Assembly: GCA_964542845.1 (NCBI GenBank)
Contig: CAZIVM010000001.1
Location: 1 to 54,523 of the forward strand
Length of the DNA stretch: 54,523 nt
Direction: 5' to 3'
From: an uncultured Victivallales bacterium
Lineage (GTDB): Bacteria > Verrucomicrobiota > Lentisphaeria > Victivallales > CAZIVM01
Part shown: one piece after another, positions 24,861-52,950 of the stretch
Numbering within the stretch: position 1 is the stretch's first letter
How the letters are laid out: each line of letters opens with the position of its first letter
Position numbers and translations under genes: made by a program
Notes under the pieces: model-generated
The model's database searches: none
Told to the model about the DNA's origin: nothing
The model's input: only the letters and a program-made list of their open reading frames with translations

Positions 24861-24863
24861 AAT

Positions 24864-34513: not shown

Positions 34514-34637
34514 CTTTTCAGTCAATTTACAGCTCTTTTACACAATTCTTGAAAAGAGTTGTAGTTTTTCATTATGTTCTGCGTTTAATAACCTAACCCG
34601 CCGTCATTATCTTCAACACTCTGTGATCTGTATAAAT

Positions 34638-35240: not shown

Positions 35241-37633
35241 ACGAGACAAATGAATCCTTAGATGCCATTGACGCTTTAGATACGATTCTTGAAGATTTTT
35301 TAGAGCGTTACCGCGTTGAACCTACCCTGGATATTGATCAATTTATTCAACAATACCCTGAATATGAACGTGATTTGAAAGATTTAATTCCGTGTTTAAT
35401 CTCTGTTGAACGCGCATCCGCCTCGGGCTCACCTTCAACGGTAGAGTCGTTAGATGCTGGGGCGCAGTTAGGTGAATACCAAATTGTTGAGAAGATTGCA
35501 CAGGGAGGGATGGGGTCGATTTACAAAGCGTATCATGTGGCGCTTAATCGTTATGTGGCGATTAAAATACTCCTGTCGGTGTGGCGCGATGATGAAATTC
35601 TACGCGCAAAATTTTTAAATGAGGGTAAAACGCTTGCGCGTTTGCAACATCCGAATATTTTAACCATTTATGGGGTTGGAAGCGATGAAAGGTACTCGTA
35701 CTTGGTGATGGAGTTGATTCATGGGACGCCCTTAAATCGTGTCGATTTGCAAGAACGTTTTCCGCATCAAACACGCACCGAAATTATCGCCCATATTGCA
35801 TTACAAATCGCTCAAGCACTCACCTATGCACACTCGCATGGAATTTTGCATTGTGATATTAAACCTTCGAATCTTTTATTGGATGAAAAAGGAAATGTGT
35901 TATTGACCGATTTTGGACTCTCCCGAATGCTCGAAGAAGGCGGGAAAAGTGCGTTGCTGACACAGGTACAGTCTGGCACTTTAGCGTATATGGCGCCTGA
36001 ACAACTTTTATCGAATCATATTTCGGTGGCGTCTGAACAGTATAGTTTAGGACTCACGCTTTACGAGTTATATGTGGGGAGATCCATCATGACGGAATCA
36101 AATCCGGGGCGACTGGTGGATCAGATTTGTTCTAATGCGCTTCCCCCTTTGCGCGATTCCGACAAAGATTTTGCTACAATTATTAATAAGAGTCTTCACT
36201 TCTTACCTGCGGATCGTTATAAGAGTATGGAATCGTTTGCGGCCGACTGGAAGCGTTATTTGAATAATGAACCGATTCATGCGCGTTCTATTTCACTTTT
36301 CAGACGTTTTTATTTATGGACAAAGCGGAAACCTGCCATTGCTTATTTATCGCTTTTAGCTGTGATTCTTGTAAGCCTCTCCTTTTCTGCATTTTATGTG
36401 GGGTATATCCGAGTGAACAGAGCCTTGAAAGAGGAGCTTGAACAGCGTAATTTATCCGAACGAAATAGTCGTATTGCATATTTAACTTTTCAAAAGTTGT
36501 TTCATACATTGGGGAATATGTCGCAAGATGGCAATTATGAAATTCATCCTGCGTTTACCTCTGCAACAACGGTTGAGTTGTTAAAGACATTACTTCCTTA
36601 TTATCAAGAGATTGTAATCTTGCGTCAAGTGAGTCAGCAGAAGATTATGGAGGCTTATAGTGCGATGTCTACCATTTATATGCAGCTCGGTCACTATGAA
36701 GACGCAGAGAGTGCGCTTTGTCATGCCATTCTCATTGGGAAAGAGATTGACGCACCGCTTGCTGTTCGTCTTTCTCAAATTAATTTTTTAGGACTCAATT
36801 TGTTTAAACAAGGAAAAACTGAAGATGCCGAAAAAATATGGGGAAACGCGATAAGTCAATATCAACATAATCCTGATACGGAAATTCAGTTGATTGTTGC
36901 AAATATGAAGCGCAATCAACTCGGCGAAAAGAAGTCTTTTCTAACGGATGAGGTCAATGTCTTTACAAAAACGCAACGTCAGAACGCGCAAGCGTTGCTT
37001 CAATATCTGGATACGATCTTAGAGAAAGATTCTGCAAATCAAGAAGCGTTGTATTTGCGGGCATCGGTTTTAGGTGAATTTCCGAGATTGCATGATGTTA
37101 CGGGGTATGAACGTGGGGATGCGTTAACTTTACTTCAGTCGTTAATCAAAACGTATCCTACCGTTGCGAAGTACAAGCTTGAATTTATTCGATTTGCACT
37201 TTATCTCCCCATTCGTAAAGACGATCAGGCATTACTTAAAACAATTAATAATGCCGTTTATTATGCTGAAGATTTATTGATGATGTCGCCTTTGAACGCC
37301 ACTTATATTATGGCAGGAATTGCGATTTATCAACGACGCACACAGTATTTTAGAGTTCGCAATGATTTTCGCAAAGCGCAAATGGATGTAAAACGAACAC
37401 TCTCGTTATTATACACATTAGTGCGTATATCTGATGATCAGTCTCATATTGAAAAACTGATTAATCTTCAATTTAAAGAATTACGTCATGCGATAAAAGA
37501 TTCGGAGTTTTCGCCTGAACTCTCTATTTTAATAGATGCGTTGCGCGAAAAAATTGAACTTCTTCCCGCAGATGAATGTGCACGATATATGGAGCAACTT
37601 GATAAATTAGAGAAAAAGAGTCAACGGTTGTAG
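35237..37633 (+). CDS. Transmembrane Ser/Thr protein kinase with a large C-terminal helical-repeat (TPR-like) domain
   Basis: Hanks kinase motifs GQGGMGSIYKA, VAIK, HCDIKPSNLL, DFG and APE. A TM lies around residues 375-397 (AIAYLSLLAVILVSLSFSAFYVGYI), followed by a ~400-aa C-terminal repeat region. There is a 4-nt ATGA overlap with the sigma gene. Confidence 0.9.
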   Translation: MNETNESLDAIDALDTILEDFLERYRVEPTLDIDQFIQQYPEYERDLKDLIPCLISVERASASGSPSTVESLDAGAQLGEYQIVEKIAQGGMGSIYKAYHVALNRYVAIKILLSVWRDDEILRAKFLNEGKTLARLQHPNILTIYGVGSDERYSYLVMELIHGTPLNRVDLQERFPHQTRTEIIAHIALQIAQALTYAHSHGILHCDIKPSNLLLDEKGNVLLTDFGLSRMLEEGGKSALLTQVQSGTLAYMAPEQLLSNHISVASEQYSLGLTLYELYVGRSIMTESNPGRLVDQICSNALPPLRDSDKDFATIINKSLHFLPADRYKSMESFAADWKRYLNNEPIHARSISLFRRFYLWTKRKPAIAYLSLLAVILVSLSFSAFYVGYIRVNRALKEELEQRNLSERNSRIAYLTFQKLFHTLGNMSQDGNYEIHPAFTSATTVELLKTLLPYYQEIVILRQVSQQKIMEAYSAMSTIYMQLGHYEDAESALCHAILIGKEIDAPLAVRLSQINFLGLNLFKQGKTEDAEKIWGNAISQYQHNPDTEIQLIVANMKRNQLGEKKSFLTDEVNVFTKTQRQNAQALLQYLDTILEKDSANQEALYLRASVLGEFPRLHDVTGYERGDALTLLQSLIKTYPTVAKYKLEFIRFALYLPIRKDDQALLKTINNAVYYAEDLLMMSPLNATYIMAGIAIYQRRTQYFRVRNDFRKAQMDVKRTLSLLYTLVRISDDQSHIEKLINLQFKELRHAIKDSEFSPELSILIDALREKIELLPADECARYMEQLDKLEKKSQRL

Positions 37634-38170: not shown

Positions 38171-38210
38171 TCTATATTTAAAGTGCAGCGTTTGTACTTT
38201 AAAAAGAGAA

Positions 38211-38248
38211 AGAGTTATCATGATGCGTGATAACTCTTTTTTTATTTT
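38211..38248. terminator. Bidirectional intrinsic terminator
   Basis: Perfect 10-bp stem AGAGTTATCA/TGATAACTCT with a 7-nt loop, followed by T7 on plus and preceded by an A-rich stretch. It serves the convergent genes ending at 38170 and 38262. Confidence 0.7.
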
Positions 38249-38261
38249 AAATAATTTTTAT

Positions 38262-39800
38262 TTAAGAATCGATATTGTACCACTCAGGGGTAATTCCTAA
38301 ATGACGCACCTTATAGTGCATAACACGTGGGGATAAATCGAGTTCGCGACCTGCTGCCGACATGTTCCCATTGTTGCGTTTGAGTGCCGACACAATGAGT
38401 TCACGTTGGTAGGAATTGACGAGCGTGGTAAACGAAGCTTGTCCTGAGGGATGTGTTTCATTTTCGCTCTCTTCGCCTGTTTGCAACGAAGGGGGGAGGT
38501 TGTAACCATAAATGGTATCATCAATACACGTTAAAACGGCGCGTTCAATGCAGTTTTCGAGTTCGCGTACATTTCCTGGCCAGTGATACGACATCAACAT
38601 GTTAATGGCAGGGGTGGAGAGTCGCTTCACATGTTTATCGTAGCGCAGGTTGGCTTTTTGGATAAAGTGTTCGGCGAGTAAAATAATATCGGAGCGTCGT
38701 TTAGAGAGATCTGGCACGACAACTGGAAAAATATTTAAGCGGTAATATAAGTCCTCACGAAAGAGTTTTTTCTCCATGAGTTCTTCGAGATTCCGACTTG
38801 TAGCCGCAAGAAATCGTACATTCGATTTGAGTTCTGTATTACTGCCGACCCGTGAAAAGGTTCGCTCTTGCAGAAAACGCAAGAGTTTGACTTGTGTTTG
38901 AAGTGTTAAGTCGCCAATTTCATCTAGAAACAGCGTCCCGCCATTCGCCTCTTCTGCTCGACCAATACGACGAGTCACCGCGCCTGTAAACGCCCCTTTT
39001 TCATGTCCGAAAAGCTCACTTTCTACAAGGTTTTCGGGGAGGGCTGCACAGTTTAATGCGACAAACGGTTTATCATTGCGTTGACTCAAATTGACAATCG
39101 CCCGTGCGACTAACTCTTTTCCCGTTCCCGAACTTCCACGAATGAGCACTGTTGCATCACTCGGCGCTACTTGACGAATGAGCTTGTATACATTTTTCAT
39201 GTTATGACAATTCCCAATCATCTCTCCGGGGTTCTCCGTGAGCATCTTTCGTAGCTCCAAGTTTCCTTTGAGGAGTTTTTCGCGTTCTTCGCGCTCTTTG
39301 TGTAACACCGCGACCGCTTCTGCTGTAATATTACTAATAATTTGAAGTAACGATAAATCGCGATTAAGATCGGTGTTTTCTGTGACAGGGCGGTCGATAC
39401 TCAAGGTTCCAACCACTTGTTCCGCGTGGAGCACAGGGACACAAATAAACGCTGTTTTTTCGTTCGTTTTGTTTTTTCGACTTTGCGTACGATTCAAAAA
39501 GCGTGAGTCTTTAGTAATGTCAGGAACGACTTCTGCTTTCCCTGTCTCGCCCACGCGTCCTGTAATCCCTTCGCCATAATGGTAGAACCCCAAACGTTTT
39601 TCAGTGGTTTCGAGTCCGTGAGAGGCTTCGATACGAAAAATGTTATCGTGAAGTAGAGTGAAAGTTCCGCGAATCATCCCCATTCGTTTATTCAGAATTT
39701 CGAGAATATCGTTGAGCAGAGCTTCCGCGTTTTGACGATGCAAAATCGCTGTACTAATCTCTTGCAAAACAAGTATTTCGGTTTCTAATGTACGGGGCAT
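38262..39800 (-). CDS. Sigma-54-dependent transcriptional activator (bEBP), GAF - AAA+ - Fis-type HTH architecture
   Basis: N-terminal GAF-like domain. Walker [15 protein letters not shown] loop (HEKGAFTGA), Walker B LFLDEIG. C-terminal [28 protein letters not shown]. There is no receiver domain. Confidence 0.9.
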
Positions 39801-39866: not shown

Positions 39867-42800
39867 TTATTTAATTGAGATTTTAGGACGAAGTGGGGTG
39901 TGTTGACGCAAGACGTGTTGATGATATTCTTGCAAACTGCACACTTCAAAGCGACCAAACTCTGCTTGTTCCAGTACGCCATCCACTGCCGCTTGGAATC
40001 CCGACAATGTGGTCGTAATTGGAATCCCTGTTAAGACCGCATGTGAACGCATTTGAATTTCGTCAGCCAACGCTTCGAGTCCATTCTCTGATGAATTGAC
40101 AATCCATTGGACTTTTTTCTCGTTTAAGAGGTCGATCAAATTCGGACGTCCGCGTGAGATTTTGTAGACCGCATGCGCTGGAATTCCTGCATCATAGAGA
40201 AGTGTCGATGTGCCACGGGTTGCGTAGATTTGGAAACCTAATTTTTGGAGCGCGCGAACACGAGGAATCGCCTCTTCTTTATCTTCATCTCTTAGGGATA
40301 AGAAAATACCGCCTGAGGTTGGGATACGGTTATGAGCTGCAATTTGTGATTTGAGATAAGCCATGCCGTGGAGGTAGTCGATGGACATGACTTCACCTGT
40401 CGATTTCATTTCAGGTCCGAGCAAGACGTCTACGCCTGCGAACTTGATGAAGGGGAAGACCGCTTCTTTAACAACAGTGTATGGAATTTTAACTTCTTCT
40501 GTGAATCCGATGTCGACTAATTTTTCGCCCGCCATACAACGCGCTGCATATCCTGCCAAAGGAACCCCAATGGCTTTACTTACAAATGGAATGGTCCGTG
40601 AGGCGCGCGGGTTGACTTCAAGGATATAAATCGTTTCGCCACGAACGGCGAATTGGACATTCATTAAGCCACAAACATGAAGTTCGCGTGCTAAATCAAG
40701 TGTATGCTTGCGGATGCGATCTTGAACACTTTGTGAGAGACTCATCGGTGGAATCATTGCGGCGGAGTCGCCTGAGTGAATCCCTGCCGCTTCAACGTGT
40801 TCCATAATCGCGCCAATCACGGAGGTTTCGCCATCTGAAATACAGTCGACATCTAATTCAAGCGCATCTTCTAAGAAGCGATCGACCAAAATAGGTTTCC
40901 CGGGTGAAATGGCTTGCGCTTCACCGACATAACGGTTCAACTGTGTTTCGTTATAAACAATAATCATCCCTCGTCCACCCAAGACAAATGAGGGGCGAAT
41001 CAACACGGGATAACCAATGCGATTGGCAATTTCCAACGCTTCGGCTTCGTTCATTGCAATTCCGTTCGGGGGCTGTTCGATGCCTAAGCGGTGCGCGAGT
41101 TGTTTGAAGAAGTCGCGATCTTCGGCAGCATCGATATCTTCAGGACTTGTCCCGATAATATTGGCGCCCGCTTTTTTGAGTTGTTGCGCAAGGTTGAGTG
41201 GGGTTTGACCGCCAAATTGGACAATGACACCACTGCAGTTTTCACGCTCATAGATGTGCATGACATCTTCAAGGGTGAGGGGTTCAAAATAGAGTTTGTC
41301 ACTGCTGTCGTAGTCGGTTGAGACGGTTTCAGGGTTACTATTCACCATGATCACCTCGTAGCCCGCTTTACGGAGCGCTAAGGTCGCGTGAACACAACAG
41401 TAGTCAAACTCAATCCCTTGTCCGATACGATTGGGTCCGCCACCGAGAACCATAATGGTTTTTTTATGGCTGACACGCACGGGGTCTGTATGTTCGCCGT
41501 AAGTCGAGTAGTAGTAAGGTGTACGGGCTTCAAATTCTCCAGCGCAGGTATCCACGACACCAAAGATGGGGAGAAGTTTTTCCGCATAACGGGCCGCACG
41601 CACTTTCTCTTCGTCAGTCTTGAGAATGAAAGCGATTTGACGATCAGAGTAACCCAACGCTTTAGCCGCTCTGAACATCTCCATATCTTTACAAAGATTC
41701 TCAAGTGTGCCAATTGCTTCAAGTGCATTTTCAAACGCCACAAGTTCTTCTAAATGACGAAGGAAGTAAGGATCAATCGCGGTGATTTGATAGAGTTTTT
41801 CAACACTATAACCGCGTTTGAATGCTACGCGAAGACAAAAGACTCGGTTGGCATGACGGCGTTCAAGTTCTGCATCAAGTTCCGCTTCGGTTAAGCTTTC
41901 GTAGGGGCCATCTTTACCATCTGCGCCAAATCCAAAACGCCCTGTTTCAAGCGAGCGTAATGCTTTTTGAAACGACTGTTTGAACGTACGCCCAATCGAC
42001 ATCGCTTCGCCCACAGATTTCATTTGTGTGCCGAGGGTGTCGGATGCTAACGGGAATTTTTCAAAGGCAAAACGTGGGATTTTAGTGACCACATAATCTA
42101 AGGAGGGTTCGAAACAACAAGGGGTTGTTCCCGTAATATCATTAATGAGTTCATCTAAGGTGTAACCCACTGCAAGCAATGCGGCAATTTTAGCGATAGG
42201 GAACCCTGTCGCTTTCGATGCGAGCGCTGATGAACGCGATACACGTGGATTCATTTCGATGATAATGCGACGTCCTGTTTGAGGATCAATCGCCCATTGA
42301 ACGTTTGAGCCCCCAGTTGAAATTCCAATCGCGCGCATCACTTTTAAGCTATCATCACGCATGCTTTGGTATTCTTGATCGTTAAGCGTTTGAATGGGGG
42401 CCACTGTGATGGAGTCACCTGTATGGATTCCCATGGGATCTACGTTTTCAATCGAACAGACAATGACAGAGTTTCCACGTTTATCGCAGATCACTTCCAT
42501 TTCGTATTCTTTCCATCCCAAAAGTGATTCTTCGATTAACACTTCGGAGGTCGGGCTCGCTTTAAGACCGCCTTTGACAATTTTGTCGAACTCTTCAGGA
42601 TTGTAGGCAATTCCGCCTCCGCTACCCCCTAAAGTAAATCCGGGGCGGATGATGAGTGGCCAACGTCCAATAGTTTCAGCAACGGCACGGGCTTCATCGA
42701 GCGTATGAGCGGTTCCTGATTGTGGAAGATCGAGACCAATGGTTTGCATGGTTTGTTTGAAAAGTTGACGATCTTCAGCTTTATTAATGGCAACTGCATC

Positions 42801-43154
42801 AGCACCGATGAGTTCCACTTGATAACGATCTAAAATCCCACGATCATAAAGTTCCATGGCAAGGTTCAATGCGGTTTGACCCCCTAAGGTGGGTAAGACT
42901 GCATCGGGGCGTTCGCGACGGATAATTTCGTGGAGAATATCAGCGGTAAGAGGTTCAATATAGGTGCGATCTGCAAACTCGGGGTCGGTCATAATGGTTG
43001 CAGGGTTGCTGTTCACCAAGACGATTTCGTAACCTTCTTTACGAAGAACTTTACACGCTTGTGTTCCAGAGTAGTCGAATTCGCACCCTTGACCGATTAC
43101 AATCGGGCCAGACCCGATTAACATAATTTTTTGAATATCAGTACGTTTTGGCAT
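39867..43154 (-). CDS. carB: Carbamoyl-phosphate synthase large subunit
   Basis: 1095 aa with duplicated ATP-grasp halves ([21 protein letters not shown]; [20 protein letters not shown]) and a C-terminal MGS-like domain. Confidence 0.97.
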
Positions 43155-43166
43155 CGTTGTGATTCC

Positions 43167-44267
43167 TTATTGTTGAATGAGTTGAACAAATTCGTCGAAG
43201 AGGTAGCGTGAGTCGTGAGGGCCGGGGGCTGACTCTGGATGGTATTGCACAGAGAATGCTTTTTGTGTGCGGTGACGAACCCCTTCAACGGTTTGGTCAT
43301 TGAGGTTGATGTGCGTCACTTCTAAACATTCGGGCAAGTTGTTTTGCGTAATGGCAAAGTTGTGGTTCTGACTCGTAATTTCAATATCGCCAGTTTTTAA
43401 GTTTTTCACAGGATGGTTACAACCGTGGTGTCCGAATTTAAGGCGAACACACTCTGCGCCACAAGCGATTGAGAGGAGTTGGTGTCCTAAACAAATTCCC
43501 ATCATGGGCTTTTTGCCTAATAATGCTTTGATGGTGTCGATGGCATAAGTGACAGCGGAGGGGTCTGCAGGGCCGTTTGAAAGAAAAACACCATCTGAGT
43601 TATATTTCAAAATCTCTTCAGCAGTGGTTTTGGCGGGAACAACGGTGACACGGAATCCCGCATCCGCGAGGAGTCGGAGAATGTTATATTTAATCCCGAA
43701 ATCAATCGCGACAAGGTGATATTCGCCTTCGGTGTTCCATTCGAAAGGTTTGTCGATGGTGACTTTGGTTGCATAATCTTGTCCATCAAGCCCTTCCCAT
43801 GCTTGTGCTTTGGCAATCGCTTCGGCTTCGGTGATAGGGGTCTCTGAACAGTGCAAATAGGCTTTTTGATTCCCATGCGCGCGTAAAGAAAGAGTGAGAC
43901 GGCGTGTATCTACCCCTGCAAGAGCAGGAATGTTGTTGGTTTTAAGAAAATCTTCAAGACTGATTTCAGATGTGAAGTTTGAGGGAGGATTCATTTCGTG
44001 AAGGACAATACCAGAGAGTCGGGGTTTATCCGATTCCATGGCAGACGCATTGCACCCATAGTTGCCGAGTTCTGGGACTGTGAATGTCACAATTTGTCCG
44101 GTGTAAGAGGGGTCGCTAATAATCTCTTGGTAGCCACTCATTCCTGTGTTGAACACCACTTCACCGACTTGATCGATAGGGGCTCCACAAGTATATCCGT
44201 GGAATATTTCGCCATTGGCGAGCGCGAGAAACGCTTTCTGTTTGGTTTTTTTCTGCCATGAGTACAT
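43167..44267 (-). CDS. carA: Carbamoyl-phosphate synthase small (glutaminase) subunit
   Basis: The triad-GATase nucleophile elbow GICLGHQ is present, together with HHGCNHPV and QYHPE. Confidence 0.95.
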   Translation of the reverse strand: MYSWQKKTKQKAFLALANGEIFHGYTCGAPIDQVGEVVFNTGMSGYQEIISDPSYTGQIVTFTVPELGNYGCNASAMESDKPRLSGIVLHEMNPPSNFTSEISLEDFLKTNNIPALAGVDTRRLTLSLRAHGNQKAYLHCSETPITEAEAIAKAQAWEGLDGQDYATKVTIDKPFEWNTEGEYHLVAIDFGIKYNILRLLADAGFRVTVVPAKTTAEEILKYNSDGVFLSNGPADPSAVTYAIDTIKALLGKKPMMGICLGHQLLSIACGAECVRLKFGHHGCNHPVKNLKTGDIEITSQNHNFAITQNNLPECLEVTHINLNDQTVEGVRHRTQKAFSVQYHPESAPGPHDSRYLFDEFVQLIQQ

Positions 44268-44282
44268 GATAACTCCTTACTG

Positions 44283-46022
44283 TTATTGATAGGCTCTGGT
44301 ATGATTATTTTCGTAGTAATTGACAAGGGCTTGGTTCACCACACGATAACCGCCTGAGGTGGGGTAATTCCCCGTAAAATACCAGTCACCCGAGTGGTTC
44401 GGACACGATTCGTGAAGTGATTTTTCGGTTTGGAAAATGACCACGAGTTCTGCGCGCAATCCTTCAGGACGGAGACGGTCTGTGATCGCTTGAATGAGTT
44501 CAGCTTCCGAGAATTCGTCGTAGATAGGGGTGACGCAGTTAGTCATTGGTTTATGTGGAGAAGAGAGTTGACGCTTCGCTTCGTTGTACGCTTGCTCTAA
44601 TACTTCCATTTTGTTGTGTTTTTTGAGTAGGTCAACCAACGCTTCAAAAGCGATCAGTTCGCGCATGCTTCCCATGTCGATGCCGTAACAGTCGGGGTAA
44701 CGAATGGGGGGGGCGGATGAGGCAATGACAATGCGTTTAGGGTTGAGTCGATCTAACATGGGTAAGATGGCCCGTTTCATGGTGTTTCCGCGTACAATGG
44801 AGTCGTCGATCACCACGAGGTTATCGGCTCCTGGACGCACGAGACCATAAGTGACATCATAGACGTGCATCGCAAGATCTTTTCGCACTGTTTCATCAGA
44901 GATGAACGTACGGAACTTTGCATCTTTAATGGCGATTTGACCAAATCGAAGCTCTTGAGGACACTTCTTAATAAGGGTTTGTAACAACCCATGAAAACAA
45001 ATTTGTGCGGTATTAGGAATATAAGAGAAAAATGTGTTTTCAAAATCGTGTTGTACCGCTTCTGAAATCGCTGGAATAAGCGCGGCACCTAACGCTTTAC
45101 GTTCTTGGTGAATGTCGGCATCATTTCCGCGTGAAAAATAGATCCGTTCAAAGACGCATTTGCGGTGAGGTTTTGAGGAAAGACAATCTTTGATTTCAAC
45201 TTGATTATCTTGGGTCATAATTAACGCTTTGCCGGGGGGGAGTTCCATCACTTCTGCCGATGTGCGATCAAAAACGGTTTGAATTGGGGCGCGTTCAGAC
45301 GCGACCACCACCACTTCATCATCAAAGTAAAAGTAACCAGGGCGGATTCCAGCAGGGTCGCGTATGGCAAACGCTTCACCATTACCTGTTGCCCCGCAGA
45401 AAGTATACGCGCCATCCATCTCTTCGAGTCCGCTCTGTAAAATTTCGGCAAAGTCGCACTGACTTTGATAGGCGTTACGCTTATGTTCAAGACAGTGTGA
45501 AATCCATTGGAGGACGAGGGAACTATCGCGCAAGTTATGCACATGGTGTCCTGATGCGGTTAATTTATGAAGAACATGTTGCGCATTAGTTAAGTTAAAG
45601 TTACCTGCAAGCATTAAGGTGCGATTCAAGCAAGGGCTTTCATGGATTTGGGGCTGACAGGCTTCAATATCGCGTGATCCGTAAGTTGCATAACGAAGGT
45701 GTCCTAAAAAAAGATCCCCGCCGAAAGGGGATTTAGAATGTGAGCTAACGGAGAGAGAAGGCCCAATTCGTTCAACCAAGTCGGCGAGGGGAAGATTTCG
45801 TATAGAACGCTCCAGTTGGAATGCGGGCACTCCTATCTCTGGATTGAAACGGATAGCGGCCATACCGGCGCCATCCTGTCCTCGATTATGTTGTTTTTCA
45901 AGTAATAACGTCAATTTCTGGAACCCGTAGAAAGGGGTTCCATACTTTTGGAGATAGTATTCGGGGCGCTGTCGGAGTTTGATCAACGCCACCGCGCATT
46001 CGTGTTTGAGAGCGTCTGACAT
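44283..46022 (-). CDS. purF: Amidophosphoribosyltransferase, long form with propeptide and catalytic Cys
   Basis: MSDALKHE-C9 (propeptide then Cys), EKQHNRGQDGAGMA, and PRTase loop LVVIDDSIVRGNTMK. Confidence 0.8.
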   Translation of the reverse strand: MSDALKHECAVALIKLRQRPEYYLQKYGTPFYGFQKLTLLLEKQHNRGQDGAGMAAIRFNPEIGVPAFQLERSIRNLPLADLVERIGPSLSVSSHSKSPFGGDLFLGHLRYATYGSRDIEACQPQIHESPCLNRTLMLAGNFNLTNAQHVLHKLTASGHHVHNLRDSSLVLQWISHCLEHKRNAYQSQCDFAEILQSGLEEMDGAYTFCGATGNGEAFAIRDPAGIRPGYFYFDDEVVVVASERAPIQTVFDRTSAEVMELPPGKALIMTQDNQVEIKDCLSSKPHRKCVFERIYFSRGNDADIHQERKALGAALIPAISEAVQHDFENTFFSYIPNTAQICFHGLLQTLIKKCPQELRFGQIAIKDAKFRTFISDETVRKDLAMHVYDVTYGLVRPGADNLVVIDDSIVRGNTMKRAILPMLDRLNPKRIVIASSAPPIRYPDCYGIDMGSMRELIAFEALVDLLKKHNKMEVLEQAYNEAKRQLSSPHKPMTNCVTPIYDEFSEAELIQAITDRLRPEGLRAELVVIFQTEKSLHESCPNHSGDWYFTGNYPTSGGYRVVNQALVNYYENNHTRAYQ

Positions 46023-46033
46023 GGTGTAACCTC

Positions 46034-48145
46034 TTAGTAGATGAAGAGCATGTCGCGATATTTAGGAAGCGGCCAGAGATTATCAGGCACAATTCCTTCG
46101 ACAGCGTCTACAATCGTACGCATTTCGGTGAGCGCAGGGAGAATTTCTTCGTGGTCATCCGCGAGTGCTTTTTCGAGTTTTATGCAAGCTTTAGTGAGTT
46201 TATCAAGTGCAGTTCCGAGGGTTTCTGCATCGGCTTTAAGGGATGCAATTCCGCCACGTAACCCTAACTCTTGCGCTTGAATTAATGGGGTGACGCATTC
46301 ACTAAACGCTGATTTTACAGCGGGAGAGATCATGGTTTTTGCCATCTCAAGCGCGACTTCTCCTTCGATACGAACACGACGTTCGTATCCTTCAACGAAG
46401 ACTTCTGTGCGCGAGTGTAATTCTTTAGAATTAAAGACGCCATGTTTGCTAAAAAGTTCAATGTTTTTCTCAGAATTTAAGATAGAAAGTGCACTTGGGG
46501 TGTTTTCTTTGTTGAGTAAACCGCGTTTTTTAGCTTCTGCACGCCACTCGGCGGAGTAGTTGTCGCCATTGAAGATGACACGTTTGTGTGCTTTAATCTC
46601 TTTGCCTAAGAGGGCTTGGAGTGATTCATTGAATTTTTTGGGATCAAACGCTTCAATTTTTTCTGCAAGTTCGTTCATCGACTCCGCAACAATCGTGTTG
46701 AGTGCGGTTAATGAACCTGCACATGATTGGCTTGAACCTGGTGCGCGGAATTCAAACTTGTTCCCTGTGAATGCAAATGGACTTGTGCGGTTACGGTCGG
46801 TTGCATCTTGTGGGAGTGCGGGGAGTGTGTCGACCCCAATTCGCATGGAGCTTGGACGGCGACTGCGTGTGGCAGGGCCTTTTTCAAGCTGTTCGATAAT
46901 ATCGTTAAGTTGATCTCCAAGGAACATTGAAATAATGGCAGGAGGTGCTTCGTTTGCCCCTAAACGGTGATCGTTTCCAGCTGTTGCAACGGCACTGCGG
47001 AGAATATCGCTGTGTTCATCAATCGCTTTAATGATAGAGGTTAAAACGGTTAAGAAGATTGCGTTTTGGTGGGGATCATTTCCTGGATTGAGGAGGTTCA
47101 ATGTGCCGTAGTTCATCGACCAGTTATGGTGTTTCCCTGAACCATTGACGCCTGCAAAGGGTTTTTCATGGAGTAAACAAACCATGCCGTGTTTATCGGC
47201 AACAGTGCGTAAAACTTCCATCACAATCATGTTGTGGTCGACCGCTAAGTTTGCATTTTCAAACATTGGTGCAAGTTCGAACTGAGCAGGAGCCACTTCA
47301 TTGTGACGTGTTTTGGCAGGAATTCCTAATTTCCAAAGTGTATGCTCAACTTCATTCATAAAGTTTAATACGCGAGTACGAATAGAACCAAAATAGTGAT
47401 CTTCTAATTGTTGATGTTTTGCAGGTGCTGCACCGAAGAGTGTGCGACCGGTTTGGATGAGGTCAGGACGCTCTAAGTAGAACTTTTTATCGATTAAGAA
47501 ATATTCTTGTTCAGCCCCTAAAGTTACAGTGAAAGGAGATTCAGGTAAATCAAAACAGTTCATTAAGCGAATCACAGATTTTTTGAGCGATTGAATCGAA
47601 CGGAGTAAAGGTGTTTTTTTATCTAAAACTTCGCCGGTGTATGAGCAGAACGCTGTAGGAATACAAAGTGTGGCGCCGTTATCATGACGTTTGATAAATG
47701 CAGGAGAGGTTGGATCCCATGCGGTGTAGCCGCGCGCTTCGAATGTGCAACGGAGTCCGCCTGAGGGGAAGCTGGAAGCATCGGGTTCGCCCACGATAAG
47801 ATTTTTCCCAGAGAAAACGTGGAGTGCTTTGTTGTTATCGACAGGTTCAAGAAATGCATCGTGTTTTTCAGCAGTGCCACCTGTGAGCGGTTGGAACCAA
47901 TGGGTAAAGTGGGTTGCGCCACGATCTAAGGCCCAACGTTTCATGGCGTGAGCCACATCGCCAGCGATGGCGGGATCAAGAGGCGCGCCGTCATTGATGG
48001 TGCTGATGAGTTTTTCTGCGGTGGCTTTGGCGAGATACTGACGCATCATTTCGGGACCAAAGACATCTTCCGCATAGAATGAAAGGTTTTTGATGTCGAG
48101 ATCGGCATCGACACTGCATGCACAACAAGAATTGGTATTGCTCAT
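46034..48145 (-). CDS. glnN: Glutamine synthetase type III
   Basis: 703 aa, GSIII length class. Motifs include HFTHWFQPLTGGTAEKHD, NGSGKHHNWS and RLGANEAPPAIIS. Confidence 0.9.
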   Translation of the reverse strand: MSNTNSCCACSVDADLDIKNLSFYAEDVFGPEMMRQYLAKATAEKLISTINDGAPLDPAIAGDVAHAMKRWALDRGATHFTHWFQPLTGGTAEKHDAFLEPVDNNKALHVFSGKNLIVGEPDASSFPSGGLRCTFEARGYTAWDPTSPAFIKRHDNGATLCIPTAFCSYTGEVLDKKTPLLRSIQSLKKSVIRLMNCFDLPESPFTVTLGAEQEYFLIDKKFYLERPDLIQTGRTLFGAAPAKHQQLEDHYFGSIRTRVLNFMNEVEHTLWKLGIPAKTRHNEVAPAQFELAPMFENANLAVDHNMIVMEVLRTVADKHGMVCLLHEKPFAGVNGSGKHHNWSMNYGTLNLLNPGNDPHQNAIFLTVLTSIIKAIDEHSDILRSAVATAGNDHRLGANEAPPAIISMFLGDQLNDIIEQLEKGPATRSRRPSSMRIGVDTLPALPQDATDRNRTSPFAFTGNKFEFRAPGSSQSCAGSLTALNTIVAESMNELAEKIEAFDPKKFNESLQALLGKEIKAHKRVIFNGDNYSAEWRAEAKKRGLLNKENTPSALSILNSEKNIELFSKHGVFNSKELHSRTEVFVEGYERRVRIEGEVALEMAKTMISPAVKSAFSECVTPLIQAQELGLRGGIASLKADAETLGTALDKLTKACIKLEKALADDHEEILPALTEMRTIVDAVEGIVPDNLWPLPKYRDMLFIY

Positions 48146-48193
48146 TTTTTCTTCTCCAATGAGTAAGGGTTATGGGTTGATGCCAACTTAATA

Positions 48194-48210
48194 AGCAAAA
48201 AGCGTGCCAA
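48194..48210 (-). promoter_or_regulatory. Sigma-54 (-24/-12) promoter for glnN-purF-carAB
   Basis: The minus strand reads TTGGCACGCTTTTTGCT, which fits YTGGCACGRNNNTTGCW with GG-N10-GC spacing. The predicted start is about 38 nt upstream of the glnN ATG. The SD is GGAGAAG. Confidence 0.8.
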
Positions 48211-48269
48211 CTTTTTAAAACAGCTCTTTTTGTGCGTAAATCTTCTTTTTTGGCGGATTGAGTATAGAA

Positions 48270-48325
48270 ATATCTTTTTACAATTTTGTAAAATCTTGAT
48301 AATATCTTTTACAATTTTGTAAAAT
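48270..48325. promoter_or_regulatory. Two direct repeats, each carrying the dyad TTTTACAA-TT-TTGTAAAA: candidate enhancer (UAS) sites for a bEBP
   Basis: ATATCTTTTTACAATTTTGTAAAAT (48270-48294) and ATATCTTTTACAATTTTGTAAAAT (48302-48325). The dyads are at 48276-48293 and 48307-48324, with centres 31 bp apart. They lie midway between the two sigma-54 promoters. Confidence 0.65.
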
Positions 48326-48376
48326 TAAAAATCGCTTTATGATTCCTTTTCTCCTTCAAATCCTTTGATATGAGAG

Positions 48377-48393
48377 TTGGCACGCTTTTTGCT
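48377..48393 (+). promoter_or_regulatory. Sigma-54 (-24/-12) promoter for gltBD
   Basis: The plus strand reads TTGGCACGCTTTTTGCT, identical to the glnN promoter 17-mer. The predicted start is about 60 nt upstream of the gltB ATG. The SD is AAGGAG. Confidence 0.8.
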
Positions 48394-48462
48394 ATTTATA
48401 AGCGTGTGTAATTTTACATCTATAAATTCAATAGGAACTCAATCTATCATAAGGAGCTTAAA

Positions 48463-51400
48463 ATGTCTTTCCAACATCCTATCTCTCCCTTGCCCGATGC
48501 GCAGGGACTCTACAATTACCAGAATGAACATGATGCTTGCGGTGTCGGTCTCGCTGCAGATCTCGCTAACGAACCGAGTCATCGCGTCGTTGATCTCGGA
48601 TTAACAATCCTTAAACGTCTTGCCCACCGTGGTGCGGTCGGTAGCGATCCCAATACGGGCGATGGCGCGGGGCTTCTCTTAACAATCCCACACGACTATT
48701 TTATGCAAACTTTGAAAATGAGTTTGCCAGAATTTGGTTTCTATGGTGTCGGGATGATTTTTGGTTGCGATACTCAGACACAAAAACAAATTGAATCGAT
48801 GATTGAAGCTGAAGGTTGCGAAGTGATTTCATGGCGCGATGTTCCGCATCATCAAGAACATATCGGGCAAGCCGCACAAGCCACTTGTCCTACAATTCAA
48901 CAAGTTTTCATAAGTGGTTCAAGTTTCACCTCCCCCGAATCGTTCGGTCGCAAACTGTATGTGATTCGTCGTATCATTGAAAACACCATTCCTTCCGTTT
49001 ACATTTGTAGTATGTCGAATCGCACGATTGTGTATAAAGGACTCCTCCTTGCCCATCAATTAGAGTTGTTTTATCCCGATTTGTCACACGAAAATTTCAA
49101 AACCGCTATTGCCCTTGTCCATCAACGTTATAGTACCAATACTTTCCCAACCTGGCAGTTGGCGCACCCGTTTCGTTTCTTAGCACACAATGGTGAAATT
49201 AATACTTTACGTGGGAACTTAAATCAAATTCGTGCGAAAGAAGCTTTTTTAGCGTCGCCATTGTTTGGTGACGATATTTCAAAGATTTTTCCTGTGGTAA
49301 CGCCCAATCAAAGTGACTCCGCATCTTTAGATAATATGTTTGAACTTTTAGTGCAAGGTGGGCGCAGTATTGAACACGCAATGTTGATGATGATGCCTCA
49401 AGCTTGGGGGAAAAAATATCATTTGAGTCGTGATGTTCGCGCCTTCTTTGAATATCATTCAGCATTGATGGAGCCATGGGATGGCCCTGCCGCGGTGGGA
49501 TTTACTGACGGAATAAATGTTGGTGCAATGTTGGATAGAAATGGATTGCGTCCCGCACGTTATACCTTAACAAAGGATGGTATTTTTGTGTTGGCTTCTG
49601 AAACGGGTGTCATTGATTTTCCTGTAGAAGATGTGGTTAAAAAAGGTCGTTTAAAACCGGGTGAGATTATTTTATGTGATCTTCAAAATCATCGTTTATT
49701 ACTCGATGATGAGGTAAAAAAGAGTGTGGCACGTCGTCAACCCTATCGTCGTTGGTGTGCTGAAAACCGCATGAATGTTCACGGTTTATTTAGTGCGATT
49801 ACTGCGCCAGAAGTTCCTGAAAATCTTCGTACGCGTCAACGCATTTTTGGTTATACGCGTGAAGATGTCTCCACCATTATTAAACCGATGTCGAAACACG
49901 GACAAGAACCCGTCGGTTCGATGGGAAATGATGCGGCGCTTGCGATTCTTTCTGATAAACCTCAGCTGCTTTTTAACTACTTTAAACAGTTGTTTGCTCA
50001 GGTGACCAATCCACCTATCGACCCCATTCGCGAGGAGTTGGTGATGAGTTTAACCACTTATATTGGGAACCGTGGGAATATTTTGGATGAAACCCCTGAT
50101 CATGCGCGTATTATTAAATTGGATCGACCTATTCTCACTTACGATGAATTAACTCACTTATGCGAACTTAAAAATGAGGCATTCAAAACCACCACTTTGC
50201 GTATGGAATTTCCTGTCAATGAAAATGCAATGGCGATGGAATATGCCCTTGATAGCTTAGGAATTGAGGCGGTGGCCGCTGTGAAAAGTGGGTATCGTAT
50301 CTTGATTTTAAGTGATGAAAATCTTTCTCCCAATTGTGCGCCTATTCCTTCTTTATTGGCTTCTGTGGCGGTCAATCGTGCCTTGAGTGCGGCAGGACTT
50401 CGCCCCGAAGTGGGCATTATTGTGGCCTCTGGGGAAGTGCGCGAAGTGATGCACTATGCGCTACTTTTAGGGTACGGTGCAACGGCGATTTGTCCTTACC
50501 TTGCGCTTGAGACCGTCTCTGCATCGGTGACGGAAGGGACGATTAAGCGTGATCGCATTACTGCGGTTAGCAACTATATTAAGGCGGTCGACAAAGGTTT
50601 ACTCAAAGTGATGTCAAAGATGGGAATTTCAACCTTACGCAGTTATCGTGGCGGACAAGCTTTCGAGGCGGTTGGGTTGGATGAAAATCTTGTGAATCGA
50701 TATTTTACAGGAACGGCAAGTCGTATTGGCGGGATTGGAATTGCGGAGATTGCGGAAGAGGCGCGTCGTCGTTATAACTCCGCGACATCGACTCAACCCT
50801 TACTCCCTGTCGGCGGTAATTATGTGTATCGTGAAGAGGGAGAACACCATTTATGGACCCCTCAATCACTCTCTGTATTTCGTCAAGCCGTCATGGAAAA
50901 CAACCGTGCGAAATACGATGAATACGCCTCTTTAATCAATAATCAAGAAAAACATCTTTGTACGCTTCGTGGACTTTTCGAGTTTGCTCCTGTTGGTCAA
51001 TCGATCCCATTAGACGAAGTTGAAAGTGTCGATTCTATTCTCAAACGTTTTGTTTCGGGCGCGATGTCATTAGGTTCATTGAGTCCTGAGGCGCACGAAG
51101 CGATTGCGGTGGCGATGAACAAAATTGGCGCGATGAGTAACACGGGTGAGGGTGGGGAAGATACCGCACGTTATACCCCAGGTCCTAACGGCGAAAATCG
51201 TGCCAGTGCGATCAAACAAATTGCCAGTGGTCGTTTTGGGGTAACGATTGATTACTTACGTCATGGCAAAGAGATACAAATCAAAATGGCGCAAGGTGCA
51301 AAACCGGGTGAGGGCGGTCAGCTTCCCGGACACAAAGTGAATGAATTTGTGGCGAAGTTGCGACACTCCATGCCGAATGTTACTTTGATTTCACCGCCTC

Positions 51401-52950
51401 CCCACCACGATATTTATTCGATTGAAGATTTATCTCAGTTGATTTATGACTTACGCAATGCGAATCCTGAAGCGCGTATTTCGGTTAAATTGGTTTCAGA
51501 AGTGGGGGTCGGTACGATTGCTGCTGGGGTTGCCAAAGCGCACTCCGATGTGGTGTTGATTAGTGGACACGATGGCGGCACAGGGGCTTCGCCTTTAACC
51601 AGTATTAAACACGCAGGTTTACCTTGGGAACTCGGTTTAGCTGAGGCGCAACAAACCCTTGTTAAAAATAATTTGCGTTCGCATGTTCGCCTTCAAGTGG
51701 ATGGTCAGCTTAAAACAGGTCGTGATATTATTATTGGGGCGTTGTTAGGGGCTGAGGAGTTCGGTTTTGCGACGAATATTTTGGTATGTTTAGGATGTAT
51801 CATTATGCGTAAATGTCATGAAAACTCATGTCCAGTGGGTGTCGCTACGCAAGATCCCGAACTTCGCAAACGTTTTGCAGGTAAGCCCGAGTATATTATT
51901 AATTTTCTCCGCTTTATTGCAGAAGAAACACGCGAATATTTGGCGATGTTAGGACTCCGCTCAATTGATGATGCCGTGGGGCGTGCGGATTTACTTCGTG
52001 TTAATCAAGCGATCGACTTCTATAAAACCAAAAATCTTGATTTCTCTAAGATTCTTACCCCTGTCACTTCGGGTAAAGTGCGCTATGAAACCACGGTTTA
52101 CGACGATGTTGCAAAAAGCTATGACCGTCGCGAACTTCTCCCCGAACTTCTCCCTTACTTAGATCAACCTAGCGCCGTGACCCTGACGCGTACGATTGCA
52201 AATGAAGATCGTGCAGTAGGGACAGGCCTTTCAGGTGAAGTTGCTTTCCGTCATGGCGCGGCAGGACTCCCCAATCATACCATTACTGTAAAGTTTACAG
52301 GTTGCGCGGGGCAGAGTTTTGGTGCCTTTTTAGCGCAAGGGATTACGTTTGATCTCGAAGGTGAGGCGAACGACTTTATTGGAAAAGGTTTGTCTGGCGG
52401 AAAAATCATTGTTCGTGCACCTAAGAATGCGCAATTTAAGCCTGAAGAAAACGTCATCGCGGGTAACGTAATTGGTTATGGGGCTACCTCAGGAGAGATT
52501 TTCTTGAACGGTTTAGCGGGCGAACGTTTTGCAGTGCGTAACAGTGGGATTACGGCAGTGGTTGAAGGGGTAGGCGATCACGGTTGCGAATATATGACTG
52601 GCGGACGCATTGTAGTGTTGGGTCAAACAGGCAACAACTTCGGCGCGGGAATGACGGGCGGTATCGCTTATGTCTATGATGAGGACGAAGATTTCGATTT
52701 GCGTTGTAATATTGATACGATCGACCTCGAAATTGTCGAGCCACACTCTGACGATGATCACGAGTTGCTGACGCTTTTACGACGTCATCTTTCATACACA
52801 CAAAGTCCTAAAGCGGCGCGGATCCTTGATAACTGGGAAAATGAACGTCATAAATTTGTGAAGGTGTTCCCCGTCGAATATCGTGCTGCGCTGGGTCGCA
52901 TGCGTCAAGACGATATGCAAGCTGTCAACCGTACAAAAGTATCCAACTAA
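48463..52950 (+). CDS. gltB: Glutamate synthase (GOGAT) large subunit
   Basis: 1495 aa. N-terminal Ntn amidotransferase Cys in HDACGVG, FMN/Fe-S central domain (CPVGVATQDP), and a C-terminal GXGXG beta-helix domain. Confidence 0.97.
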   Translation: MSFQHPISPLPDAQGLYNYQNEHDACGVGLAADLANEPSHRVVDLGLTILKRLAHRGAVGSDPNTGDGAGLLLTIPHDYFMQTLKMSLPEFGFYGVGMIFGCDTQTQKQIESMIEAEGCEVISWRDVPHHQEHIGQAAQATCPTIQQVFISGSSFTSPESFGRKLYVIRRIIENTIPSVYICSMSNRTIVYKGLLLAHQLELFYPDLSHENFKTAIALVHQRYSTNTFPTWQLAHPFRFLAHNGEINTLRGNLNQIRAKEAFLASPLFGDDISKIFPVVTPNQSDSASLDNMFELLVQGGRSIEHAMLMMMPQAWGKKYHLSRDVRAFFEYHSALMEPWDGPAAVGFTDGINVGAMLDRNGLRPARYTLTKDGIFVLASETGVIDFPVEDVVKKGRLKPGEIILCDLQNHRLLLDDEVKKSVARRQPYRRWCAENRMNVHGLFSAITAPEVPENLRTRQRIFGYTREDVSTIIKPMSKHGQEPVGSMGNDAALAILSDKPQLLFNYFKQLFAQVTNPPIDPIREELVMSLTTYIGNRGNILDETPDHARIIKLDRPILTYDELTHLCELKNEAFKTTTLRMEFPVNENAMAMEYALDSLGIEAVAAVKSGYRILILSDENLSPNCAPIPSLLASVAVNRALSAAGLRPEVGIIVASGEVREVMHYALLLGYGATAICPYLALETVSASVTEGTIKRDRITAVSNYIKAVDKGLLKVMSKMGISTLRSYRGGQAFEAVGLDENLVNRYFTGTASRIGGIGIAEIAEEARRRYNSATSTQPLLPVGGNYVYREEGEHHLWTPQSLSVFRQAVMENNRAKYDEYASLINNQEKHLCTLRGLFEFAPVGQSIPLDEVESVDSILKRFVSGAMSLGSLSPEAHEAIAVAMNKIGAMSNTGEGGEDTARYTPGPNGENRASAIKQIASGRFGVTIDYLRHGKEIQIKMAQGAKPGEGGQLPGHKVNEFVAKLRHSMPNVTLISPPPHHDIYSIEDLSQLIYDLRNANPEARISVKLVSEVGVGTIAAGVAKAHSDVVLISGHDGGTGASPLTSIKHAGLPWELGLAEAQQTLVKNNLRSHVRLQVDGQLKTGRDIIIGALLGAEEFGFATNILVCLGCIIMRKCHENSCPVGVATQDPELRKRFAGKPEYIINFLRFIAEETREYLAMLGLRSIDDAVGRADLLRVNQAIDFYKTKNLDFSKILTPVTSGKVRYETTVYDDVAKSYDRRELLPELLPYLDQPSAVTLTRTIANEDRAVGTGLSGEVAFRHGAAGLPNHTITVKFTGCAGQSFGAFLAQGITFDLEGEANDFIGKGLSGGKIIVRAPKNAQFKPEENVIAGNVIGYGATSGEIFLNGLAGERFAVRNSGITAVVEGVGDHGCEYMTGGRIVVLGQTGNNFGAGMTGGIAYVYDEDEDFDLRCNIDTIDLEIVEPHSDDDHELLTLLRRHLSYTQSPKAARILDNWENERHKFVKVFPVEYRAALGRMRQDDMQAVNRTKVSN

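Follow-up and report, generated by a model that had tools for sequence, protein, structure and literature searches.

A predicted bidirectional sigma-54 control region between glnN and gltB in an uncultured Victivallales bacterium, with paired palindromes as the candidate site of a NifA-like activator

In an uncultured Victivallales bacterium (GenBank assembly GCA_964542845.1), the gene for type III glutamine synthetase (GS-III; glnN) and the gene for the large subunit of glutamate synthase (GOGAT; gltB) diverge from a 317-bp spacer, and the organization of this spacer is the subject of the present analysis. The DNA analyzed, hereafter called the window, is the whole stretch of 54,523 nucleotides (54.5 kb) formed by positions 1 to 54,523 of contig CAZIVM010000001.1; its G+C content is ~43%, and its closest GlnN relatives, at 66-67% identity, come from Lentisphaeria, Fibrobacter and Victivallaceae. 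Within the spacer (48146-48462), two opposed predicted sigma-54 promoters flank a pair of identical palindromes, or dyads, and the gene for a sigma-54 activator lies on the leftward side of the locus. The features on which the argument turns are listed here.

38262..39800, minus strand: gene for a GAF-AAA+-HTH_8 sigma-54 activator of 512 amino acids (aa), NifA-like; supported by Pfam and NCBIfam matches, alignment and synteny; proposed reader of the dyads
46034..48145, minus strand: glnN, type III glutamine synthetase, 703 aa; Pfam GSIII_N, Gln-synt_C and Gln-synt_C-ter; leads the leftward unit
48194..48210, minus strand: predicted sigma-54 (-24/-12) promoter of the glnN operon, TTGGCACGCTTTTTGCT; exact consensus match, with equivalents in relatives
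48276..48293, no strand assigned: dyad 1, TTTTACAA-TT-TTGTAAAA, proposed activator site (upstream activator sequence, UAS); centered at -101.5 (glnN) and -119.5 (gltB) from the predicted start sites
48307..48324, no strand assigned: dyad 2, the same 18-mer as dyad 1; centered at -132.5 (glnN) and -88.5 (gltB) from the predicted start sites
48377..48393, plus strand: predicted sigma-54 (-24/-12) promoter of gltBD, TTGGCACGCTTTTTGCT; exact consensus match, with equivalents in relatives
48463..52950, plus strand: gltB, glutamate synthase large subunit; NF008730, 1728 bits

An earlier reading of the window, made from its sequence only, had placed one 17-mer on each strand of the spacer, had taken both copies for sigma-54 promoters with GG-N10-GC spacing, and had put them some 40-70 nt from start codons with good Shine-Dalgarno (SD) sequences. 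The positions, spacing and distances held on measurement. The 17-mer TTGGCACGCTTTTTGCT occurs exactly twice in the 54.5 kb, once per strand (48377-48393 on plus, 48194-48210 on minus), and no other position in the window matches it with fewer than 3 mismatches (0.29 matches are expected with up to 3 mismatches). Both copies fit TGGCAC-N5-TTGCW perfectly, as no other sequence in the window does, each with its GG and GC 10 nt apart and each directed toward its gene. The end of the 17-mer lies 48 nt from the glnN start codon (ATG 48145, minus strand, SD GGAGAAG) and 69 nt from that of gltB (ATG 48463, SD AAGGAG). With transcription assumed to begin 12 nt past the C of the -12 GC, the predicted start sites fall at ~48183 for glnN and ~48404 for gltB, with 5' untranslated regions of ~38 nt and ~59 nt, respectively.

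The likeness of the two promoters extends slightly beyond the 17-mers, into a 24-nt inverted repeat of 92% complementarity formed by AGTTGGCACGCTTTTTGCT and its flanks. We considered the identity of the two copies as a separate feature, produced for example by gene conversion, and dropped the idea because the four free positions are mostly unlike in the promoter pairs of relatives (CTTC/GTTT, CTTT/GCAT); one relative, L081, has an identical pair too. We treat the window pair as two promoters close to consensus, with a preference for T in the spacer, to which exact identity adds little. A separate repetition is seen on the minus strand, where AAGTTGGCA occurs twice, 24 nt apart (48181-48194 and 48205-48218), and so places a second TTGGCAT at the predicted glnN start site; this second copy has no matching -12 element.

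Between the promoters stand two copies, and in the whole window only these two, of the 18-mer TTTTACAATTTTGTAAAA, a perfect 8-2-8 palindrome. Their starts are 31 bp apart, about three helical turns, so that both dyads present the same side of the helix, and the half-sites TTTTACA and TGTAAAA of a single dyad are themselves 11 bp, or one helical turn, apart. The direct repeat in which each dyad is embedded extends leftward to AATATCTTTT and rightward by a single T. Allowing up to 3 mismatches, the window contains 5 dyad matches where 0.38 are expected, and no shuffled sequence reached 5. The earlier description of two ~24-bp direct repeats, each with a perfect 8-2-8 dyad, was confirmed, and the dyads lie at 48276-48293 and 48307-48324; its 31-bp distance between centers was also right, and its estimate of about -90 to -130 from the start sites agrees with computed positions of -88.5 to -132.5. 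It had further judged the dyad to be neither NtrC-like nor NifA-like, and the spacer indeed holds no NifA site (TGT-N10-ACA) and no NtrC site (TGCACC-N5-GGTGCA), whether searched strictly or loosely. Sites for TyrR (TGTAAA-N6-TTTACA), NtcA (GTA-N8-TAC) and TnrA/GlnR (TGTNA-N7-TNACA) are likewise absent from the spacer. Rfam, at its gathering threshold, finds no structured RNA family in the window, and the spacer is therefore not accounted for by a riboswitch or leader RNA.

Two other dyad-like elements were noted in the window. The first, TGTAATTTTACA at 48407-48418, occupies ~+4 to +15 of the predicted gltB transcript, carries the dyad half-sites in opposite order, and also partners 48318-48327 in a 10-nt perfect inverted repeat. 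The second, TTTGACAATTTTGTCGAA, lies inside carB at 42573-42590 and resembles the GACA-N4-TGTC variant of Opitutales and Sedimentisphaerales; it is probably there by chance.

The leftward genes run from glnN to the activator gene, and gltD follows gltB on the right.

44283..46022, minus strand: PurF-like class-II glutamine amidotransferase, 579 aa; Pfam GATase_6/7
43167..44267, minus strand: carA, carbamoyl-phosphate synthase (CPSase) small subunit; TIGR01368, 451 bits, over the cut-off
39867..43154, minus strand: carB, carbamoyl-phosphate synthase large subunit; NF003671, 1616 bits
38205..38243, readable on both strands: terminator-like hairpin directly after the activator stop codon
52963..54354, plus strand: gltD, glutamate synthase small subunit; TIGR01317, 508 bits

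The gap between carB and the activator gene measures 66 bp, and a terminator-like site was looked for in it and not found. The hairpin at 38205-38243 is likely the end of the leftward unit. Because such a hairpin follows the activator stop codon and none precedes the gene, the activator may be the last gene of the glnN unit. The PurF-like protein reaches 142 bits with the NCBIfam purF model, far under the cut-off of 350, and its place between glnN and carA is kept in Lentisphaeria and Kiritimatiellia loci (L001, L005, L007, L008). A second GATase_7 protein (472 aa) is encoded at 21014-22432 on the minus strand.

The product of 38262-39800 had been named as the candidate reader of the dyads, and closer inspection of the protein is consistent with that role. 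It comprises a GAF domain (residues 25-162), a Sigma54_activat domain (PF00158, 2.6e-70), an AAA-lid and a Fis-type C-terminal HTH (HTH_8, residues 466-499), and alignment shows its Walker A motif (GSSGTGKE) and GAFTGA loop to be intact. Its best homologues are Victivallis proteins with 75% identity. The best NCBIfam match is the NifA model TIGR01817, at 437.8 bits and thus below the cut-off of 528.85, and the best PDB match is NifA 9qq6_C, collinear over residues 8-503 (E=2.6e-92). The ntrC models score 327.7 against a cut-off of 558.6, with a GAF domain in place of the receiver. We rejected the identification of the protein as NifA proper, given its score under the TIGR01817 cut-off, a spacer free of TGT-N10-ACA and the lack of nif genes nearby; its identification as NtrC was rejected for want of a receiver domain, of an ntrC score above cut-off and of an NtrC box in the spacer.

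Orthologues of the activator (49-75% identity) are syntenic with glnN, gltBD or amtB-glnK in every locus of the Planctomycetes-Verrucomicrobia-Chlamydiae (PVC) group and of Fibrobacter that includes enough DNA. The position of the gene varies as follows.

Downstream of carB: window, L005
Last gene of a gltB-gltD-dapF-aminotransferase operon: three Victivallis-type loci (L081-L086)
Downstream of gltD: L001, L010
Between glnN and gltB: L078
Near two amtB-glnK operons: L040
Divergent from glnN, directly beside the dyads: Fibrobacter loci L002 and L003 and seven metagenome loci

In L040 (Sedimentisphaerales, Planctomycetota), where the activator is 49% identical, two perfect sigma-54 promoters (within the regions 3985-4092 and 7610-7740) drive amtB-glnK and amtB-glnK-glnN, and each has GACA-N4-TGTC/TGTA dyads 90-120 bp upstream. 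The recognition helix of the activator and the dyad beside which it is found appear to vary in step, in the two combinations below.

Recognition helix LSPRV(I/M)HYK: Lentisphaerae and Fibrobacter, with the dyad TTTTACA-N4-TGTAAAA
Recognition helix TT(Q/P)RII.YK: Opitutales (L010) and Sedimentisphaerales (L040), with the dyad CGACA-N4-TGTCG

This covariation, drawn from a few lineages, is suggestive. The L078 activator has the helix TTERIFVYK; in the same locus, from a Kiritimatiellia metagenome-assembled genome (MAG), TTTTGTA-CC-TACAAAA at 15568-15583 lies ~95 bp upstream of a sigma-54-like gltB promoter, with its half-sites in inverted order. Another Kiritimatiellia MAG, L005, has a dyad, TTTTACACTTTATGTAATG, immediately upstream of the activator gene itself (18201-18219).

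We compared the control region across 80 GlnN loci, one genome per species, to which three Victivallis-type loci fetched via the activator were added. The loci that preserve all or part of the arrangement are listed here.

L083, Victivallis vadensis: divergent glnN/gltB; the gltB promoter is the window 17-mer and the glnN promoter is TTGGCACGGCATTTGCT; between them lie the dyads TTTTACAAAATTGTAAAG and GTTTACAATTTTGTAAAA, 31 bp apart
L081, Victivallaceae bacterium BBE-744-WT-12: Victivallis-type layout; both promoters TTGGCACGCCTTTTGCT
L085, Victivallis sp. Marseille-Q1083: Victivallis-type layout; dyads 32 bp apart
L001, Lentisphaeria MAG: divergent glnN/gltB, opposed promoters, paired dyads
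L005, Kiritimatiellia: divergent glnN/gltB, opposed promoters; dyads TTACA-N5-TGTAA, 32 bp apart
L010, Opitutales: divergent glnN/gltB, opposed promoters; dyads CGACA-N4-TGTCG, 30 bp apart
L013, MAG labeled Akkermansia sp.: the identical 18-mer and two further dyads; one perfect promoter, upstream of glnN
L007 and L008: one N5-type dyad each, upstream of a promoter-like -24/-12 element
L102, L110, L112 and L131, gut metagenome: divergent sigma-54 promoters flank paired dyads

Equivalents of the glnN-side promoter are thus found in L001, L005, L010, L013, L081, L083, L085 and many metagenome loci, and divergent gltB promoters in L001, L005, L010, L081, L085, L102, L110, L112 and L131, with the identical 17-mer in L083. 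A check proposed at the outset, whether dyad and promoters persist in orthologous spacers, turned out positive: both are kept in Victivallis-type, Lentisphaeria, Kiritimatiellia and Opitutales loci, the 17-mers as near-consensus and rarely as identical sequences. Dyads in the relatives stand at about -77 to -200 from predicted start sites, and the pairs in loci with the full layout are 30-33 bp apart (29-33 bp when the Fibrobacter type described below is included). The consensus over 40 sites from 21 loci is tTTTACA-WWWW-TGTAAAa. The layout is conserved in four phyla, in backgrounds ranging from 43% to 60% G+C, and since the genomes of L081, L083 and L085 are G+C-rich, their dyads show up as islands of AT. 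Exact two-fold symmetry is seen in L081 and L083, whose dyads lie at -77.5 and -108.5 from both predicted starts. L085 has a third dyad, TATTACAAAAATGTGAAA (2044-2061), centered on its predicted gltB start site, where it might serve autoregulation or repression.

Strong dyads are specific to this type of locus. Throughout the 1.46 Mb formed by the window and the 80 GlnN loci, every dyad scoring at least 13/14 lies directly upstream of glnN, in Lentisphaeria, Akkermansia-labeled or Fibrobacter loci, and none of that score occurs in the Firmicute, Chloroflexi or Actinobacterial GlnN loci of the set. We also scanned metagenomes blind to gene content, with the pattern TTACA-N4-TGTAA, 13-19 nt, TTACA-N4-TGTAA. 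Among the matches listed, paired dyads adjoin nitrogen-assimilation genes in 25 of 80 and glnN in 20 of 80. The glnN-adjacent pairs are of two types, one with divergent perfect sigma-54 promoters and gltB opposite (33-bp spacing), the other of the Fibrobacter type (29-bp spacing). Elsewhere a pair adjoins gltB (L149), has a -24/-12 promoter with a type I glnA ~110 bp downstream of it (L089), precedes a -24/-12 promoter and glnD (L105, L153), or stands upstream of amtB-glnK-nadE (L151); the remaining loci among the matches listed are mostly tandem-repeat arrays. Several gut loci represent one species sampled repeatedly, which leaves about a dozen independent lineages; even so, chance falls far short of explaining how often the pairs lie beside nitrogen-assimilation genes. 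In L146 (6871-8536), a similar dyad pair, GTTTACAAGATTGTAAA and CTTTACAATTTTGTAAA, accompanied by a TTGGCATGCTTCTTGCAT promoter, has on one side the gene for a sigma-54 activator with a PAS domain (37% identity) and on the other an aldehyde dehydrogenase gene, after which comes a second, unidentified open reading frame (ORF); a related site thus appears to be used here by another activator.

A distinct version of the arrangement occurs in Fibrobacter, where dyads paired at 29 bp lie upstream of glnN (L002 8638-9700, L003 8396-9520; also L093, L095, L111, L114, L125, L132 and L154). The homologue of the activator, adjacent and divergent, has no GAF domain and is 360-379 aa long, with a loop that reads GAFIGA in L002 and GAFTGA in L003.

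Together, these observations lead us to read the glnN/gltB spacer as a bidirectional, enhancer-dependent sigma-54 control region in which the palindromes would be the site of a NifA-like nitrogen activator, a reading to which we assign a probability of roughly three in four. The sequence-only reading had already envisaged a single enhancer between two opposed sigma-54 promoters, and a layout that is both conserved and locus-specific in relatives argues for it. The analysis establishes the sequences, the identities of the genes, the domains of the activator, and how conserved, how spaced and how locus-specific the promoters and dyads are. Which protein binds the dyads, what signal it receives, where transcription starts and in which direction it is regulated are points that we infer.

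Several observations weigh against this reading. The link from dyad to activator consists of synteny and of covariation in only a few lineages, and the Kiritimatiellia orthologue in L005 reads GAFTDA in place of GAFTGA. Relative to the dyads, the two promoters of the window differ in register by 13 bp, unlike those of the symmetric Victivallis-type layout. No rpoN gene is present among the larger ORFs of the window; indirect support for its presence in the genome comes from the GAFTGA loop of the activator and, at phylum level, from a published survey in which both Lentisphaerae genomes included, and Fibrobacteres also, are listed with RpoN (PMC3372290). Finally, no convincing -24/-12 promoter was found downstream of the dyads in the nine Fibrobacter loci, either with 2 mismatches allowed or by eye, and their spacers contain other conserved blocks instead, such as GGGTGCCAACC...GTTTTTATTCC. 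Because dyads occur there without a recognizable -24/-12 promoter, the protein that binds them can apparently work without a canonical sigma-54 promoter, and the Fibrobacter branch may be a sigma-54-independent derivative.

The strongest competing explanation keeps the sigma-54 promoters as genuine and assigns the dyads to another factor encoded elsewhere, a repressor or a nitrogen regulator, so that the GAF activator would bind some other sequence or none. It draws on the Fibrobacter dyads just described, on the fact that binding of the activator to the dyads is our own deduction, and on the frequency with which AT-rich palindromes serve as operators for many HTH families. We nevertheless consider it unlikely. 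Across at least six gene arrangements, the dyads are consistently accompanied by just one regulator gene, that of the activator, and in Fibrobacter the gene for its homologue directly adjoins them; recognition helix and dyad flanks change together; and a position between -77 and -200 with three-turn pairing is what sigma-54 activators use. Further, the spacer holds no NtcA, TnrA/GlnR, TyrR, NtrC or NifA box.

Less probable still, in our judgment, is that the dyads are mainly operators over sigma-70-type promoters in the AT-rich middle of the spacer, acting by repression or promoter switching as NtrC does at E. coli glnAp1. Sigma-70-like hexamer pairs do overlap the dyads (e.g., TTGATA-18-TAAAAT at 48296-48325), but the 22 such matches do not differ significantly from the 14.5 ± 4.4 expected, and AT-rich DNA readily gives them. 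The extra L085 dyad at the gltB start site and the window's TGTAATTTTACA at 48407-48418, just past the predicted gltB start, would also suit operators of this kind; in the GC-rich Victivallis-type loci, however, each dyad is an AT island on its own, evident -35/-10 elements are lacking around it, and the distance to both sigma-54 promoters stays the same. Such a role is compatible with activation from the dyads as a second function and does not replace it. That the dyads are a functionless product of chance or of a recent AT-rich duplication, with fortuitous -24/-12 matches, is scarcely credible: the direct repeat does run past the palindrome (AATATC...) as a recent duplication would, but shuffled sequences give only ~0.3-0.4 matches even with 3 mismatches, strong dyads are locus-specific, and conservation of the layout in four phyla from 43% to 60% G+C effectively refutes the idea.

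If the spacer is a shared sigma-54 enhancer region, its operation can be outlined. Sigma-54 RNA polymerase would form closed complexes on the two opposed near-consensus -24/-12 promoters, of which PglnN would drive glnN, the purF-like gene, carA, carB and probably the activator gene, and PgltB would drive gltBD. Dimers of the GAF-AAA+-HTH activator encoded at 38262-39800 would bind the two 18-bp palindromes and, on receiving an activating signal, would assemble into an active AAA+ ring. The signal would enter through the N-terminal GAF domain; to judge purely from NifA, it would probably be 2-oxoglutarate and/or a PII protein that conveys nitrogen limitation. The ring would then loop to either promoter and, through ATP hydrolysis and its GAFTGA loop, open the closed complex. 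Because one enhancer would be shared between opposed promoters, GS-III (with the glutamine-consuming CPSase) and GOGAT would be switched on together, and because the activator gene would lie inside the regulated unit, it would be positively autoregulated.

This scheme has close counterparts among known systems. In E. coli and Salmonella, glnAp2 carries two strong NtrC (NR-I) dyads about three turns apart, at ~-108 and -140. The present locus resembles it in having a predicted sigma-54 glutamine synthetase promoter with two dyads three turns apart (-101.5/-132.5 for glnN), an activator gene that is probably co-transcribed with glutamine synthetase and would give positive feedback, and a proposed switch on nitrogen limitation. 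By contrast, the protein here has a GAF sensor where NtrC has a phosphorylated receiver, which would make this a one-component system; the site is TTTTACA-N4-TGTAAAA rather than TGCACC-N5-GGTGCA; the synthetase is of type III; and the enhancer would also serve a divergent GOGAT promoter. NifA is the closest relative in sequence and shares the GAF-AAA+-HTH architecture, the HTH scaffold (S/T)PR...Y(K/R) and TGT/ACA half-sites. Compared with the NifA UAS (TGT-N10-ACA), however, the half-sites here are in the opposite order and at another spacing (ACA-N4-TGT), the recognition helix differs from the TPRQIAYRIQ of NifA, and the neighbors in all loci examined are glnN, carAB, gltBD and amtB-glnK, with no nif genes. 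The same hexamers, TGTAAA and TTTACA, make up the box of TyrR, which also belongs to the sigma-54 activator protein family; there they are arranged as TGTAAA-N6-TTTACA, the reverse order and another spacing from the TTTACA-N4-TGTAAA found here.

Divergent sigma-54 promoters that share activator sites are known from E. coli, at zraP/zraSR with ZraR and at hyc/hyp with FhlA. They too have opposed -24/-12 promoters, activator inverted repeats between them and the regulator gene in one of the two units; they differ from the present locus in regulator, signal and motif, the targets here belong to central nitrogen assimilation, and two Victivallis-type loci are exactly two-fold symmetric. Outside Proteobacteria, Leptospira controls ammonium-assimilation genes without NtrB/NtrC through EbpA-RpoN, in which EbpA is a GAF-domain sigma-54 activator with amtB and lipoprotein genes as targets (PMC12655853). 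EbpA is FhlA-like, with two GAF domains, falls in a different orthologous group, and has no GS-III or GOGAT genes among its described targets. In Aquifex aeolicus, a NifA-like protein, likewise a GAF-type sigma-54 activator acting on ammonium-assimilation genes outside Proteobacteria and without NtrB/NtrC, is reported to bind upstream of glnBA (Studholme et al. 2000). We know of no binding motif that either EbpA or the Aquifex protein has in common with the dyads described here.

Apart from the nitrogen locus, two further gene groups were noted in the window. On the plus strand at 34623-37633, the gene for an ECF-type sigma factor (205 aa) overlaps by 4 nt that of a 798-aa Ser/Thr protein kinase with TPR repeats, in what looks like an ECF sigma/kinase pair. 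At 22698-27380, also on the plus strand, neighboring genes for a VWA-domain protein (720 aa) and a BatD/TPR protein (838 aa) resemble a Bat-type aerotolerance operon.

A 2025 survey that compared sigma-54 regulons across phyla places sigma-54 control of glutamine synthetase mainly in Pseudomonadota and does not mention Lentisphaerae or Fibrobacter (PMC12316311). In the literature that we searched, we found neither a published description of the dyad motif or its linked activator nor a described nitrogen regulator or operator for the PVC group and Fibrobacteres. For other groups the control of nitrogen is well charted, with NtrC in Proteobacteria, TnrA/GlnR in Firmicutes, GlnR/AmtR in Actinobacteria, NtcA in Cyanobacteria and NrpR in Archaea. 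What is new here would be a regulator and an enhancer motif that are apparently conserved across the PVC group, with an altered form in Fibrobacteres. Because the proposed mechanism is a textbook one, the advance lies in a new member and a new regulon and not in a new principle.

We lean somewhat toward a broader proposal, in which the GAF-AAA+-HTH protein and the paired ACA-N4-TGT dyads would form the master nitrogen regulator and enhancer code of Lentisphaerota, Kiritimatiellota, Verrucomicrobiota and at least some Planctomycetota, with a GAF-less and possibly sigma-54-independent form in Fibrobacterota. It would act as a one-component replacement for NtrBC, with a regulon comprising GS-III, type I glutamine synthetase (GS-I), GOGAT, carAB, amtB-glnK and glnD. 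The PVC group and Fibrobacteres include abundant organisms of the gut and rumen, among them Victivallis, relatives of Akkermansia, Kiritimatiellae and Fibrobacter. For these bacteria the locus supplies a candidate regulator, a sharply defined DNA motif and a testable architecture of two promoters and one enhancer. Nitrogen regulons of PVC and Fibrobacter genomes can be reconstructed with this motif straight away, and the symmetric Victivallis-type region would offer a clean natural system in which to ask how one activator assembly picks between two sigma-54 promoters.

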